From: Escherichia coli
GTDB taxonomy: Bacteria > Pseudomonadota > Gammaproteobacteria > Enterobacterales > Enterobacteriaceae
DNA length: 64,000 nt
Reading direction: 5' to 3' (one strand)
NCBI RefSeq assembly: GCF_002854065.1
Contig: NZ_CP024147.1
Within the stretch, counting starts at the first letter, position 1; every line of letters begins with the position of its first letter. Both the position numbers and the translations under genes were made by a program. This document shows positions 1-14,059 of the stretch, piece by piece. Under the pieces are notes generated by a model that was not told the DNA's origin, did no database searches, and worked only from the letters and a program-made list of their open reading frames with translations.

Positions 1-126
1 AAGCAAAACTTCAGACACCTGACATATAAAAAATAATCTCGGTGTGAGATGCTTTACGTCTTCCAAGCCCCCTTCCTTGCCGTAAATGGAAAGATACATC
101 TAATTATAGAATTTATATGTTTTACC

Positions 127-702
127 CTACGGCAGTGCTGGCCATTCAATATCCTGTGCAGTTGACGTATCAACACGGTTCAGCAACACCCGATACTTTT
201 TCCAGGCTTCCAGCAATGAGGTTTCTTCCTCCGTTGCGATTTCCAGATCTACAGCATCCTGAAGTGGCGCAATATGCTCACTGGCTACCTGCATCAGGCT
301 GTTTTTTGTTTCTTCCGCCTCCCGGATCCGGAACAGTTTTTCTGCTTCTGCATCTTTCACCCAGGCTGTGCCGTTCCACTTCTGAAACTCCCCTTCCGGC
401 GATAACCAGGTAACATTTTCCGGTAACGGACCGAGTTCAGAAATAAATAACGCGTCCCCTGACGCTACGTCATAAACCGTTTTACCCCGATGGTCTTCAA
501 CGAGATGCCACGATGCCTCATCACTGTTGAAAACAGCCACAAAGCCAGCAGGAATATCTGGCGGTGCAATATCGGTACTGTTTGCTGGCAGACCTGTATG
601 AGGCGGAATATATGCATCACCTTCACCAATAAATTCATTAGTTCCGGCCAGCAGATTATAAATTTTTATGGTCCGTGGTTGTTCACTCATTCTGAATGCC
701 AT
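127..702 (-). CDS. phage tail fibre assembly protein (Tfa family)
   Basis: 191-aa ORF; recognised as lambdoid Tfa; sits immediately 3' of the tail-fibre fragment. Confidence 0.8.
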
Positions 703-1271
703 TATGCAAGCCTCACAATATAGTTAAATGCGATGTTTTTGACGGTGTTTTCCGCGTTACCAGCAGCGTTAACGGTGATGGTGTGTCCATGTGAACCAAT
801 CGCAACGGAGTGCGTATGAGCACCAATACCGACAGTATGTGCGTGTGCACCTGCGCTTGCAGCAGTGCCGGACAGTGAGTGGGTACTGGTATAATCCCAT
901 TGAATATTTACACCAGTCGCATAATTTCCGATTGCAACGTAAATATCGTAAGTATCACCAGATGTATTGACCCAGGCAAAATTTGTAAACCCTGCCGATG
1001 TGCGCTGCCATAAAGCACCAGTAATCCCCTTCGGATTACCATTACCTGCACGCAAAACAAGTTCAGATATACCTGCCTGTTGAGGTGAACCGACGTTATA
1101 TCCAGCCCCACCAATCAACGTAATTGAAACAACAGAACTCGCCTGCGGCATGGTTACCGTTGCTAATTTGAACCAACCAGCACCACCGCTGAATGACATT
1201 GTTGTTGAGTTAAGCGTACCAATATCTTTCGGTGTCAGTGTTATATCCGCTGAAAGCGCCTTACCATTCAC
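702..1271 (-). pseudogene. side tail fibre, C-terminal fragment only
   Basis: 189-aa open frame ending in the His-rich HxH tail-fibre tip motif; frame opens on GTG with no N-terminal body; lies directly after gene L. Confidence 0.6.
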
Positions 1272-1406
1272 CTTACGGGCAGAAGGTATTCACGCAGGGA
1301 AAATATCTTTCCCCCTCCGGTGTTCTCACCACGAAGCCGCACGACTCCGCTGGCGCACATCGCCGGGCGTGCGCCAGAATCGCTGATTCTGTCTCTGTCA
1401 TGGGAT

Positions 1407-2105
1407 TCACTGCGAAAGTTTGTTAATGGAAAGGAAGCCGCCAAAGTTGCCGACGTTATTGCGAAACTTACAGCCGCTCAGGCATTTGCTGCATTTATCC
1501 TTCGTGATATCGGACGTCGGCTGATCATATTCATCCGCGACCGCCGGACCGTGATAACCGCACTCATCACCGCGATAGGTCCAGGTGCAGGTGTTGGCCA
1601 GCATGATACGTCCCGGAAAAACGGCACCGTCCGTTTCCGTCGGCGTGGACAGTACAAAAGAGGCACTGACCGCGCTCAGTTCGCTGCACTGCTCGATGCG
1701 CCAGCGGCTGATCACCTCCTGCTCCGGATCGGCGTCACTGTTTCCGTTGACGAAGTTCACCGCATCCAGAAAACGGGCGTAAACCTTACGCCGGACCACC
1801 GTTCCTCCGACCAGACTCTGCAGGTCTTCCGCCATCCCGGTGACCATGCCGTGCAGGTTAGAAACCGTCAGTGTCGGACGGGCAGCACTGCCTTTGCCGT
1901 TCAGTTCAAATCCCGTCCCCTGAATGGGATACGCCTGATACTGTCGCCCCTGCCAGGTGACCGGCTCACCTTTATCGTTCTGCTCATTACAGAAAAAGTA
2001 GCGTTCCCCGCCTACCTCGGTCAGGTCGATTTCCCAGAGCACCACCTGGGCTGACTGAGTGAGGCGTGTCGTCTCATGATGTGTTTCCTGTGGAATATCC
2101 TGCAT
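1407..2105 (-). CDS. minor tail protein L (lambda gpL-like)
   Basis: 232-aa ORF closely matching lambda L as recalled (MQDI...CSKCLSGCKFRNN...INKLSQ). Confidence 0.85.
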   Translation of the reverse strand: MQDIPQETHHETTRLTQSAQVVLWEIDLTEVGGERYFFCNEQNDKGEPVTWQGRQYQAYPIQGTGFELNGKGSAARPTLTVSNLHGMVTGMAEDLQSLVGGTVVRRKVYARFLDAVNFVNGNSDADPEQEVISRWRIEQCSELSAVSASFVLSTPTETDGAVFPGRIMLANTCTWTYRGDECGYHGPAVADEYDQPTSDITKDKCSKCLSGCKFRNNVGNFGGFLSINKLSQ

Positions 2106-2114
2106 CAGAGACTC

Positions 2115-2444
2115 CTATGCCACGACCTGTTCAAAATCTGCCGTTATGGTTACCCACAACGCCCCCACGCTTGCCGACCATTTACGACAAACCACCCTGA
2201 TCGGCTTCCAGTCATAAGGTGGCGTCCACTGAAATGCGCGGACGCCACCGTGCCGTTCCAGAAAGGCTTTTAAAGATGGGTGTTCACATTTACGAACACG
2301 TATAGTCACGCTGTAAATCGACAACTGGTTATTCAGTCCCGCCGCACGACGCTGTTCATAACCATCGCCCAGCTTCACTGTCACCACTTTCGGCTCTGAT
2401 ACCACATTCATATCCGGGCGCACTTTCCAGTGAAACGTCTCCAT
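2115..2444 (-). CDS. minor tail protein M (lambda gpM-like)
   Basis: 109-aa ORF, lambda M-like, immediately upstream of L. Confidence 0.8.
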   Translation of the reverse strand: METFHWKVRPDMNVVSEPKVVTVKLGDGYEQRRAAGLNNQLSIYSVTIRVRKCEHPSLKAFLERHGGVRAFQWTPPYDWKPIRVVCRKWSASVGALWVTITADFEQVVA

Positions 2445-4648
2445 TACCGATATGCTCCACTTAACCGACCACCATCACGGGCCTGCTGTTGCATAAAGTC
2501 CGCTGCCGCTTTTTTCCCAAGGTCATAAACCACCTTCAGGGCAGCCGGACCTATCTGCCCGTTCGTGCCATCGTTATTGATCTCGATGTTGTACTGCGGG
2601 GCAAACATCGCCATACCTGAACCACCAATATCCGCCACAACCCCCAGCTTACCGTCAGCACCACGACGCAGTGGCAGAATGGCTTCAGGTCCAGCTTCCC
2701 CCATCACACCCGCGCCTTTTGCAAAAGCAAAAAACGTCGGACGGTTAACCACCGTGCCACTGTAACGACTCAAATCAGCAGACTGATAAATCCCCCCATT
2801 GGCATTCAGGGAAAGGCTGCTGAGATCAAATCCCAGTACACTGCCAATCCCTTTTATCGATTTCATCATGGTTGCCTGCGCCAGGATTTTCGCCATATCT
2901 GACAGCACCGAAGAGGTGAAGGATTTGAAGTTGAGTTTGCCGGTAGTGACAAAAGTTGCCAGGCCATTTCCCATGTTGCTGAAGGCTGATGAGAACACCT
3001 GTTCTGCTGTTCCTGCCGTATTGTCTGCATCCACGGTAAAATCCTGAAATGCACGCAGGACTCCGTTTTTCCAGTTACCCTGCACAACTTCAAGCTGTTG
3101 CCAGTAACGGCGATTCTCATTCAGTTGTCGGTTCAGGCTCTCCGTCAGCGCCTGCTCGGCCTTTCTGTAGTCATCCGTGTTATATGTCCCTTTCTGCTCA
3201 CTATCCCGCCTCAACTGCTCCAGCTGTTGCTGGTATTTCTGGCGAAGACTCAGTTGTACCTGATATCGCTGCCGCTGCTGATCACCCATACCCACCGTGG
3301 CGATATCCAGGTCATGTTGCTGACGCTGAGCGCGCTCTTCTTCAGCCAGTTGACTGGTCAGCTGAATTGTTTTTTTCTTCAGATCGTTGAGTGCCGTCTG
3401 TTTCTGAAGCTCCTGCTGTTTTACATCCAGCAGCGTCAGTGCCTGAATCAGTTCATCTTTACGGGCCAGCACACTCTTTTCATCTGCCGTCAGTTTTTTC
3501 CCGTCCAGATCGCTGATGCGCTGCTGCAGAGCCAGAAGCTGTTTATGCGCTTCTGTCATCTTTTCAGTGGCAATGCCTGCTGACTGTCTTGCAGCAGCAA
3601 TCTGTCCTTCCACCTGTGCCTGTTGCTGACTGTACTGCAGCAATAACCGGGTGGCCTCATCATTACGGGGTTCGCGTGTTTTTTTCTTACCGGATGCCAG
3701 GGCTTTCTCGTAACGTTCATTTTCACGTTGTATCGCCGCATCCCTGACAGCCTGATCGGCGTACTGCATGGCATTAATACGCGCAATTTCACGCTGATGT
3801 CGTGCTGCTTCCGTTTCATTCATCCGGTTCAGTGCAGCATTTTCAGCATTACGGCGTTTCTGTTGCTCCTGATAATTCCGCTCTGCCTGCTCTTTTGCAT
3901 CCTGCAAATCCTTCTGGCGTTTTTTCTCCTGAAGCTCGTTAAGACGCTGCTGATCGTACTCAACCTGAGAAGATGATGCCGTCCAGGGGAGTCTTTTCAC
4001 CCGCGACACTTTCTCCTGTAAAGCGGAAATCTGTTCATCCAGCGAGTCTTCACGACCAATATTCATGGCCGCATCCCAGAAACGACTCCATAAATCAGAC
4101 AGATACTTCAGCGTACTGCCCAGCGCATTGAGGTTATTATCAATATCCGCAGTACGCCGACCGGTTTCCTCTGCCAGTGCAGACATGGCTATCCGTGCCG
4201 CATCACTGGACCGCCCCTGTTCCCCAAGGACGCGTATCTGTTCAAGCTGAGTGGCAGTAAGAAAATGCAGCTCATTGTCCAGAGCCTTCGCGGCATTTAC
4301 AGGATCATCCTTCAGCCGCTTAAACTGATTTATGGTATCGCTGACCGACTGGCCAACCGATCGCTCCATCTGTGCGGCAGCTCTCGCCACCATACGGGAT
4401 GGATCATGAACAGAGTCTGCTGCCTCATGCTTCACACTAAACAGGGCTGGCCCGACATGGTGCAGGGCGTAAACGGGGTTCCCCCTGACAGTCGCAGCCA
4501 CAGGAGTGTTGGCCGCGAGGAGCCGTTTTTTTACTGTGTCCCGGTGAAGCCCAAAGGCCTCAGCGATTTTAAAAACACTCCAGTAATAAGCATCACCGAT
4601 CCCGCTCACATTTGACATAAGCAACTCCATCTGGCAGGTGAAAATCAT
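2444..4648 (-). CDS. tail tape-measure protein (lambda H-like C-terminal two thirds) with a divergent, possibly Nu1/small-terminase-derived N-terminus
   Basis: 734-aa ORF; C-terminus ...INNDGTNGQIGPAALK...RDGG resembles lambda H; N-terminal ~170 aa has an HTH-like segment; ATG at 4648. Confidence 0.65.
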   Translation of the reverse strand: MIFTCQMELLMSNVSGIGDAYYWSVFKIAEAFGLHRDTVKKRLLAANTPVAATVRGNPVYALHHVGPALFSVKHEAADSVHDPSRMVARAAAQMERSVGQSVSDTINQFKRLKDDPVNAAKALDNELHFLTATQLEQIRVLGEQGRSSDAARIAMSALAEETGRRTADIDNNLNALGSTLKYLSDLWSRFWDAAMNIGREDSLDEQISALQEKVSRVKRLPWTASSSQVEYDQQRLNELQEKKRQKDLQDAKEQAERNYQEQQKRRNAENAALNRMNETEAARHQREIARINAMQYADQAVRDAAIQRENERYEKALASGKKKTREPRNDEATRLLLQYSQQQAQVEGQIAAARQSAGIATEKMTEAHKQLLALQQRISDLDGKKLTADEKSVLARKDELIQALTLLDVKQQELQKQTALNDLKKKTIQLTSQLAEEERAQRQQHDLDIATVGMGDQQRQRYQVQLSLRQKYQQQLEQLRRDSEQKGTYNTDDYRKAEQALTESLNRQLNENRRYWQQLEVVQGNWKNGVLRAFQDFTVDADNTAGTAEQVFSSAFSNMGNGLATFVTTGKLNFKSFTSSVLSDMAKILAQATMMKSIKGIGSVLGFDLSSLSLNANGGIYQSADLSRYSGTVVNRPTFFAFAKGAGVMGEAGPEAILPLRRGADGKLGVVADIGGSGMAMFAPQYNIEINNDGTNGQIGPAALKVVYDLGKKAAADFMQQQARDGGRLSGAYR

Positions 4649-7673: not shown

Positions 7674-8698
<1,025 letters not shown>

Positions 8699-9702: not shown

Positions 9703-9983
9703 GAGATTGTGGTGCTTTTTGTGGGAGTCATCCACTTACGCACTTTGTTTTGCCATGCCAGCAGTTAGCTTCTGCTGTAAAACTATTCATGCCGCAAACC
9801 TGCACTTCACCACAATGGTTAGCATACTTTTCCTGATTAAGATTTTGCCAAATATGCTGGCCATTGTTTCATGTATTGGACCTCCTTAATTTTTATTAAA
9901 GAAATCCAATATTCACTACTCTGTCCGTATCTCTACTCAGGCATCAGCCTTCTTCGTTATCGTATACAGACGAGCGATGAATT

Positions 9984-10199
9984 TTAATCAGTAATGATGA
10001 CATTTGCTGCTGCAGGACCTTTAGCACCACTCTCTATAGAGAAGGTAACCTTTTGACCTTCAAATAAGGTTCGATAATTATCATTCTGAATCGCAGAAAA
10101 ATGCACAAACACATCTTTACTACCATCAACAGGAGAAATAAAGCCGAAACCTTTATCAGCGTTAAACCATTTTACTAAACCAGTCATTTTATTTGACAT
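9984..10199 (-). CDS. cspB: cold shock protein CspB
   Basis: 71-aa CspA-family [26 protein letters not shown]... Confidence 0.9.
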
Positions 10200-10509
10200 T
10201 CTACATTCCTTAACTTGAGCCTTTCGGCATAAATGGTTTGCATAACAGAAACGACTTCGTACTTAATTGGAGAGACTCAAAGAAGGAATAAGTGAATAAC
10301 ACCTGAAATGAGAACTGCTTTAGTAAACTACTTCGTATATCGTCTGTTCTTCAAACCGACGCAGTCATTAACTCATAGTTGAACATATGAAGCAATGTTT
10401 ATTTTAGACATCCAGCCACCTTCAACCCTATCAAAAAAGTAGTTTTCTCCAGGAACGTGTGTATGGTGCACCAGGTTATCAGTATTAAGGAGTTTTTCTG
10501 TCCCCTAAA

Positions 10510-10715
10510 ATGACAGGAATTGTCAAAAACTTTGACTACAAAAGCAGCAAAGGTCTTATATCCCCATCCGATGGCGTATCGATGCCCAGCTTCAGGTTTC
10601 AGCTCTCAATCTTCGAGATGCAGAAGAAATTACCACAGGATTACGCGTGGAATTTTGCCGGATAAATGGTTCGCGTGGACCTTCAACTCCCAATGTTTAT
10701 CCTGGGATGAGATTC
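10510..10715 (+). pseudogene. cspF: cspF-like cold shock gene, frameshifted
   Basis: [22 protein letters not shown] in frame 1; homology continues as [32 protein letters not shown] in the -1 frame; one base missing around 10573-10578; original stop lost. Confidence 0.65.
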
Positions 10716-10744
10716 AATATCTCTATTGCCCCATTTAAAGCACA

Positions 10745-10775
10745 AAAACCCGCTTATCAGCGGGTTTTCTACTTT
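10745..10775 (+). terminator. rho-independent terminator
   Basis: ACCCGCT-TATC-AGCGGGT followed by TTTTCTACTTTTTT. Confidence 0.55.
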
Positions 10776-10874
10776 TTTCTAAACGTCGGATACACAAAGC
10801 CCATCGTTGAGAAAATCTTATCCATGTTTTTTGAAAAATGCAAACATCATGTCGCCATCTTCAGCAAAAATCAT

Positions 10875-12508
<1,634 letters not shown>

Positions 12509-12516
12509 CCACTACA

Positions 12517-12852
12517 GTTTTTCAACCTGAAGTGTCAGCGAGAGTAAAAAATTATGGTGACCATTTTACCGTTGACTCAATAAGGCAGATGTGGGACGCA
12601 GCGATAAAACGTGCCGGACTCCGCCATTGAAAATCATATCAGTCGAGACATACTTATGCCTGCTGGTCGCTGACAGCTGGTGCTAACCCGGCATTTATAG
12701 CAAACCAGATGGGCCATGCAGATGCGCAAATGGTATTTCAGGTATACGGAAAATGGATGTCTGAAAACAATAATGCACAGGTAGCTTTGTTAAATACACA
12801 GTTAAGCGAGTTTGCCCCAACCATGCCCCATAACGAAGCAATGAAAAATTAA
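12517..12852 (+). pseudogene. phage tyrosine integrase, 3' remnant
   Basis: Open frame 12631-12852 encodes ...RHTYACWSLTAGANPAFIANQMGHADAQMVFQVYGKWM...; in-frame TGA at 12628; begins at the IS right end. Confidence 0.55.
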
Positions 12853-13039
12853 TTTAATATTTATCAAATAGTTGACACGTATGACTCTTGAAATCCATAA
12901 ATTCAAGCGCAGTGCCCAGCCATCCCGATACTGCTGCTTTCACCAAATCCTTAGTGCTTCTTTCGTGTTTTTCTATTGTCATAATGGTTATCTCTAAAAA
13001 AGAGGTAAGATGCGTACTACTTACTCGCCGTTATTGGTA

Positions 13040-14059
13040 TTATTCAGAAAAAGTGAGTAAGACTTTGCAGCAATGTTTTTGATCCTGTTCAAATAAACTA
13101 ATGGCATCAGCAACATGCTGGAAATCAAACGTATGGGTAATTAATTTTTCTGGTTTAATTAACCCTTTACTTAACCAGTCGATAACGACCGGAAATTTAT
13201 TTGCATTTAAGCGTGAAGAGAAAATAGATAGTTCTTTTCCGGTAATTCCTTGCTGAATCACTTCAGAAGGTTCACTGGAGAAGCCCATCAATACAATACG
13301 TGCCGCTGGAGAAGCCAGCGTTACGGCCTCTTTCAGGATAGAAGGATGACAAGCCGCATCAATAATTAATGTCGGCTTTATGCCTTTTTCAGCGAAAATC
13401 TCGCCAAGCGGTGTCTGGCTGTTATTAATCACCCAGTCAGCCCCGCTCTCTTTCGCTTTTTCCAGTCGTTCATCAATGCGATCGGCAACAATCACATTTT
13501 TAACGTTATAGACGCCTTTTAATACCTGAACGATCGTCAGGCCGATTGGACCGGCACCGTAAACCAGAACGGTATCATTTTCAGTCGGTTGACCATGACC
13601 GGTTACGTTAGCCGCAATGGTAAAAGGTTCGATCATCACCGCATATTGATCGGCCACTGCTTCAGGAATTTTCCACGCATTTTTTGCCGGAACCACAGCA
13701 TATTCACTGAAACCACCGTCAGCGTGCACACCTAATACAGCGAGTGTCGTACAAACGTTCGGCTTACCTATAGAGCACGGATAGCAATGACCACAGCTGA
13801 CCACCGGATCGACAGCAACACGTTCACCGACTCTGGCGCTTTCCACACCTTCACCCACCACATCAATGACGCCAAAGAATTCATGTCCAATGACGCGCGG
13901 ATATTTCGCAAAAGGATTATGCCCACGATAAATATGGCTATCTGAACCACAAATTCCGGCAAGTTTCACTTTTACTCGTACTTCACCCGCTGACGGGGTG
14001 GGTATTTCACGTTCGACAATCGCCAGTTGATTCGGTTTTTCAATTAATATGCTTTTCAT
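13040..14059 (-). CDS. rspB: starvation-sensing protein RspB (Zn-dependent dehydrogenase)
   Basis: 339-aa ORF from MKSILIEK with AAGGAG Shine-Dalgarno; ORF-track start is extended. Confidence 0.9.
   Translation of the reverse strand: MKSILIEKPNQLAIVEREIPTPSAGEVRVKVKLAGICGSDSHIYRGHNPFAKYPRVIGHEFFGVIDVVGEGVESARVGERVAVDPVVSCGHCYPCSIGKPNVCTTLAVLGVHADGGFSEYAVVPAKNAWKIPEAVADQYAVMIEPFTIAANVTGHGQPTENDTVLVYGAGPIGLTIVQVLKGVYNVKNVIVADRIDERLEKAKESGADWVINNSQTPLGEIFAEKGIKPTLIIDAACHPSILKEAVTLASPAARIVLMGFSSEPSEVIQQGITGKELSIFSSRLNANKFPVVIDWLSKGLIKPEKLITHTFDFQHVADAISLFEQDQKHCCKVLLTFSE

Follow-up and report, generated by a model that had tools for sequence, protein, structure and literature searches.

A 64,000-nucleotide stretch of Escherichia coli DNA (the window) contains two divergent genes of the cold-shock protein family, one of which had been noted in a preliminary description to lose its reading frame. 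The locus raises the question of whether this second gene, a cspF-like copy on the plus strand, is a dead copy, an intact gene obscured by an assembly error, a gene expressed by recoding, or a remnant with a new role. We consider it about 95% probable that the segment at 10498-10699 (plus strand) is an already annotated dead copy of cspF that carries three independent lesions and lies beside an intact cspB in a decaying Qin-type prophage. The pseudogene is already known and is without a mechanism of its own. The first reading of the locus, a cspB/cspF pair with cspF inactivated by a one-base deletion, was supported.

Identity and setting of the cold-shock gene pair

The divergent arrangement was confirmed, with cspB located at 9984-10199 on the minus strand and the plus-strand paralog starting approximately 300 bp away. 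The cspB coding sequence (71 amino acids, identified from the list of open reading frames [ORFs] and from the annotated cspB of matching genomes) is intact, as previously described: its product is identical to K-12 CspB at 71 of 71 positions and scored 109.1 bits on the cold-shock domain (CSD, Pfam PF00313) in a profile search and 144.3 bits on the NCBIfam CspA subfamily model, for which the cut-off is 130. The gene possesses a 5' leader of the cspA thermoregulator type (10200-10360, minus strand), with the Rfam model RF01766 matching at full length over 9968-10360 (minus strand) and scoring 158.8 bits (gathering score, 78; E = 1.3e-42). Given the complete identity of the protein and the end-to-end match of the RNA model, both the coding sequence and the long cold-sensing leader have been kept. 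An intact CSD protein combined with a long RF01766-matching leader characterizes a CspA-type cold-shock gene, and cspB, with its cspA-like thermosensing leader, is presumably still a functional cold-inducible RNA chaperone gene. A promoter scan matched no sigma-70 consensus for the promoters of cspB or cspF.

On the plus strand, the ORF list contains a residual frame of 51 codons (10510-10665) that terminates at a TAA located at 10663-10665 and in which 22 residues of CspF precede 29 that are out of frame. The loss of frame after 22 residues and the position of the expected 32-residue continuation of the cold-shock domain in the -1 frame were thus as had been reported. The ORF as encoded scored 37.2 bits on the NCBIfam CspF model (NF012007, cut-off 111), matching profile positions 5-27 only, and 17.6 bits on Pfam CSD, matching positions 1-23 only. 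A complete PF00313 domain would span approximately 66 residues and exceed the gathering score, which is 27 bits, and the encoded ORF falls short in both respects. It also does not provide what an intact CspF gene would comprise, namely an uninterrupted frame of approximately 70 codons with a start that is well spaced from the Shine-Dalgarno sequence and a stop of its own. The repaired 70-amino acid product scored 134.5 bits (E = 8.5e-40) on the CspF model and 54.2 bits on Pfam CSD (positions 1-65), and its score of 103.1 bits on the CspH model was below the cut-off of 141. The assignment as cspF-like was therefore upheld by the model scores as well as by a gene order equivalent to that of K-12 Qin. 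The pass on NF012007 establishes the ancestry of the product, as judged from its sequence, but not its function. A cspH-like identity was considered and was ruled out by the translated K-12 loci together with the two model scores.

An 851-nt region of the window matched E. coli chromosomes with up to 99.9% identity, and the features beneath the matches were annotated cspB and cspF. In strains 100416, C5, LF82, and ATCC 25922, the NCBI pipeline PGAP annotates the equivalent of 10498-10700 as cspF that is "frameshifted; incomplete; missing C-terminus". These annotations and the CspF score of the repaired product define the pseudogene in the window as the remains of codons 1-68. In K-12, cspF (b1558) lies in the cryptic prophage Qin in the same position and orientation, divergent from cspB and between ydfT (Q) and ynfU/essQ, and it shows 89% DNA identity with the window over 264 nt. 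It has a TTG start, a T in GGT CGT, the codons for LS followed by a stop, and ynfS downstream, all of which are lacking in the window. The gene order rrrQ, ydfR, essQ/D, ynfU, cspB, cspF, ydfT is that of K-12 Qin, and the cspB/cspF context is also found in LF82/Tritos and 2H10. The cspF gene of a Qin-type prophage is expected to be divergent from cspB, with Q on one side and the holin gene on the other, and the window was found to provide this genomic context. The locus corresponds to the cspB/cspF pair of accessory genes (morons) that, in Qin/Tritos-type lambdoid prophages, separates the gene for the Q antiterminator from those for lysis.

The chromosomal paralog cspH (b0989) is divergent from cspG and shares with cspF the features of the CspF/CspH clade, including a TTG start, an MSRK NH2-terminus, and few aromatic residues, whereas its locus differs from that of the window in having cspG, ymcF, and gnsA as neighbors. 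CspF and CspH form a separate clade that is limited to Enterobacteriaceae and has no known function, and most of the aromatic residues that bind RNA are missing from both proteins (PMC6719143). Their overproduction left two test mRNAs that other Csp proteins induce, baxL-bax and gdx, largely unaffected (PMC11648934), and knockout of cspF, unlike that of cspB or cspI, did not result in a competition defect in long-term stationary phase (PMC7406224).

Three lesions in cspF

The lesions were placed by alignment of the window to K-12, S88, MEI005, and CP123276. The first affects the start codon. In K-12, both cspF and cspH are annotated as initiating at a TTG that is located 5 nt downstream of a GGA(A/G) ribosome-binding site. 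The corresponding codon of the window (10498-10500, plus strand) is CTG, with positions 10498-10509 reading CTG TCC CCT AAA in place of the TTG TCC CGT AAA of K-12. As a start codon, CTG supports only very weak initiation in E. coli. The MSRK extension that had been described as absent is therefore present as four codons, although in altered form (TTG to CTG, Arg3 to Pro). The Shine-Dalgarno sequence of cspF (GGAG, 10489-10492, plus strand) lies upstream of both possible starts, at the normal distance of 5 nt from the ancestral one at 10498 but at a distance of 17 nt from the ATG at 10510. Given that this ATG is codon 5, the poor spacing noted earlier applies to the ATG but not to the ancestral start. 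PGAP accepts CTG as a start in the otherwise intact alleles of MEI005 and CP123276, and lesion 1 alone is therefore no proof of inactivation.

The second lesion is the deletion of one T between 10574 and 10575 (plus strand), which changes GGT CGT to GG CGT at codons 26/27 and as a result of which reading halts at the TAA after 51 codons. A missing base had been predicted near 10573-10578, and alignment with intact K-12 cspF, the check proposed in the preliminary description, located the deletion inside this range.

The third lesion is a 258-bp deletion whose junction lies between 10699 and 10700 (plus strand) and through which codons 69-70 were lost together with the stop codon and ynfS, a small gene of 29 codons. 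The missing segment corresponds to K-12 coordinates 1642058-1642315. The loss of the original stop, which had also been noticed, is thus attributable to this separate deletion and is not a consequence of the frameshift. No microhomology was seen at the junction, and a CATGAG repeat near both ends of the deletion was rejected as its substrate, given that deletion between its copies would give a different junction. The deletion joins the cspF remnant to sequence approximately 45 nt upstream of a G+C-rich hairpin (10745-10768), which was identified in a terminator scan, has T runs on both strands, and is likely a bidirectional terminator between cspF and Q. The hairpin is kept in all aligned alleles. 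Rfam matches to rnk_pseudo, RsmY, and Trp_leader were all below their gathering scores; those to rnk_pseudo and RsmY overlap the hairpin, on which the rnk_pseudo alignment largely rests. With the T conceptually restored, the cspF frame passes through the hairpin to 11036, over antisense Q sequence.

The CTG start, the excessive distance of the next ATG from the ribosome-binding site, the frameshift, and the 258-bp deletion would together make synthesis of a cold-shock-domain protein impossible.

Distribution and descent of the allele

A cspF match was detected in 1,622 of 5,426 complete E. coli genomes, with 214 of these matches extending across both deletion sites, approximately 1,369 being of the K-12 type, and 38 being intermediate and MEI005-like. 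A 65-nt probe centered on the missing T matched the same 214 genomes, whereas the corresponding T-restored probe had no exact match in RefSeq complete genomes, with all 214 aligning with one gap. All three lesions recur unchanged in phage Tritos (OV696610), where the region was left unannotated. A base that restores the frame, the observation that would have overturned the initial description, is effectively excluded by the presence of the deletion in 214 independently assembled complete genomes and a phage genome. LF82, ATCC 25922, C5, 100416, and Tritos all share the three lesions with the window, with identical junctions. The allele has a single origin and occurs in approximately 4% of complete E. 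coli genomes as well as in a viable temperate phage.

Tritos is prophage 3 of LF82; it makes virions and formed plaques on MG1655 hsdR- (PMC9928086). Transcript data for LF82 list cspB and cspI, but not cspF, among the expressed accessory genes (PMC9928086). In other phages, 2H10 among them, the cspF found at this place is intact. Among the 214 genomes, 100416 is closest to the window, with 99.7% identity over 10440-10800 compared with approximately 98-99% for the other 213, and it alone among the aligned sequences shares three single-nucleotide differences with the window: TTC to TCC at codon 22, CAC to CAG at codon 33, and TCCCGGG to TCCTGGG after the junction.

With regard to the direction of change, all 70-amino acid homologs that were read (from E. 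coli, E. fergusonii, and Citrobacter as well as K-12 cspH) keep SDGR(I/K)D and an NVY(L/F)S end, and the Salmonella hits are likewise 70 amino acids long. The state of cspF in the window is therefore derived. The opposite polarity, an insertion in K-12 rather than a deletion in the window, was rejected, given that every 70-amino acid homolog read ends in NVY(L/F)S followed by a stop.

An intact form of the window lineage is present in CP123276 (GenBank; locus L012, CP123276.1 1639255-1644467), where it encodes a protein (P0001) that forms a single-member cluster. This protein has P3, N11, Y14, S17, A30, S59, and T64 as well as the CTG start in common with the window, but it differs from the window in that the T is present, the normal NVYLS end and stop are kept, ynfS is retained, and the product has 70 amino acids. 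No other genome with an intact allele of this type was found, and the RefSeq complete-genome set lacks it. The window differs from K-12 cspF at 10 nonsynonymous and 9 synonymous codons, and most of the amino acid differences predate the inactivation because they are shared with the intact CP123276 form. Within the former coding region, the window differs from the intact form by F22S, H33Q, and A65P, all of which are nonsynonymous; these sequence differences would be what relaxed constraint predicts, albeit in small numbers.

The CP123276 genome is 4,641,690 bp in size, and its cspF lies within approximately 100 bp of the MG1655 coordinate; it may be that of a K-12-background strain with a Qin segment of foreign origin. 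In both MEI005 (1559-1771 of locus L006) and CP123276 (2501-2713 of L012), the CTG-start cspF is annotated at full length and begins with MSPK. The cspF of MEI005 looks, on the basis of its sequence, like a recombinant that is of the window type to approximately codon 13 and of the K-12 type thereafter.

Further, independent cspF lesions were found in E. coli. Three alleles (P0019, P0026, and P0033) comprise two with frameshifts near codon 57 and one with a deletion that fuses codon 54 to downstream sequence, and in QEC11-421 (L009) the whole of cspF is absent together with the Q gene.

Prophage decay and the fate of cspF

The Q antiterminator gene (ydfT/quuQ) persists in the window as a truncated 3' part (10875-11258, minus strand; identified as an ORF), with the blastn match to K-12 ydfT ending at 11258. 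It is annotated in strain 100416 as "antitermination protein, missing N-terminus". The truncation is attributable to an ISEc31-like insertion sequence of the IS3 family and approximately 1.26 kb (11259-12516, plus strand), which was recognized from its 31-nt inverted repeats (11254-11284 and 12491-12521), its overlapping transposase ORFs, and its annotation in strain 100416 as ISEc31 family. The flanks of the element map to K-12 ydfT and intQ, and beyond it the sequence resumes in the 3' part of intQ, just before rspB (12517-13040). Given that the element joins ydfT to intQ, approximately 9.5 kb of the K-12-equivalent early region of Qin (ydfU, rem, hokD, relBE, dicABC, and others) is absent, a loss that looks like an IS-associated deletion. 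The prophage of the window is more decayed than K-12 Qin on the Q/intQ side, and, whereas the Tritos/LF82 prophage is complete and inducible (PMC9928086), it is truncated by the insertion sequence.

The Rfam isrC model, described as an Hfq-binding sRNA, matched 11327-11449 (plus strand) at full length with 150 bits. The match lies inside the 5' end of transposase orfA, and the model therefore detects the insertion sequence here rather than a free-standing sRNA gene. An rzpQ-like ORF at 7674-8045 (minus strand) encodes 123 amino acids, compared with a gene of 498 nt in K-12, and rzpQ is annotated as frameshifted in the near-identical 100416; this ORF is probably another decayed lysis gene. On the basis of ORF translations only, positions 1-4648 of the window contain a tail-fiber assembly-like ORF, a tail-fiber fragment, minor tail protein L/M-like ORFs, and a tape-measure-like ORF of 734 amino acids, and these tail genes are followed by ynfO/ydfO-like ORFs at approximately 5.2-6.1 kb. 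Given this succession, the head and terminase genes of a complete Tritos-like prophage seem to be missing.

Single-base indels are a common assembly artifact, and a sequencing or assembly error in an otherwise intact gene was therefore weighed. This explanation is hardly credible, given that the same T is missing in all 214 carriers, which originate from many laboratories, and in the Tritos genome, and that restoration of the base would still leave a CTG start and no stop. Expression of CspF by a programmed -1 ribosomal frameshift at GGC/CGT has in its favor that slipping back by one base precisely at GGC would yield ...SDGRIDAQ... again. There is, however, neither an in-frame X XXY YYZ heptamer nor a homopolymer of at least 5 bases within 10498-10665, the -1 frame remains open to 11036, crossing the terminator hairpin and entering sequence antisense to Q, and the start codon is degraded. 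The existence of an intact form of the same lineage that does not have the deletion also indicates that the deletion arose recently and does not represent a conserved signal for recoding, and the probability of such recoding is practically negligible.

The remnant might also have acquired a new role, either through a 51-amino acid peptide initiated at the ATG at 10510 or through a transcript that is antisense to the Q-dependent late transcription reading through into cspB and the lysis genes. The ORF at 10510-10665 is open, the cspF promoter region is conserved, and cspF is antisense to the direction of late transcription. We nevertheless judge such a role to be very improbable: the Shine-Dalgarno sequence is 17 nt away from the ATG, no family match was obtained for the out-of-frame tail, F22S and H33Q are both located inside the region also covered by the 51-amino acid ORF and give no sign of constraint, and truncation of Q by the insertion sequence means that Q-dependent late transcription is gone from the window anyway. 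The persistence of a remnant of approximately 200 bp at approximately 98-99% identity in 214 genomes might conceivably be a sign of constraint, such as one on the shared cspB/cspF control region or the adjacent terminator, but recent common ancestry explains it equally well. It is also very improbable that inactivation of cspF was favored rather than tolerated, or that the remnant serves as an antisense or promoter element through which cspB or late-gene read-through is modulated. The multiple independent lesions, including the allele of the 214 genomes and the viable phage, P0019, P0026, P0033, and the absence of the gene in QEC11-421, are compatible with favored inactivation, but recurrent loss is equally expected from neutral decay of a dispensable prophage accessory gene. 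A dead copy thus remains the preferred reading, and the cspF remnant would be a neutral relic of a dispensable gene that has spread both vertically and by phage transfer.

With regard to annotation, neither the ORF at 10510-10665 nor that at 10647-11036 merits a gene call, and the extent of the pseudogene should be given as 10498-10699. The locus provides an example of the stepwise decay of a prophage accessory gene, with the start codon having been weakened first and the frameshift and terminal deletion having followed, and the resulting dead allele is still carried by a viable phage. These findings add weak support for the dispensability of CspF in E. coli.
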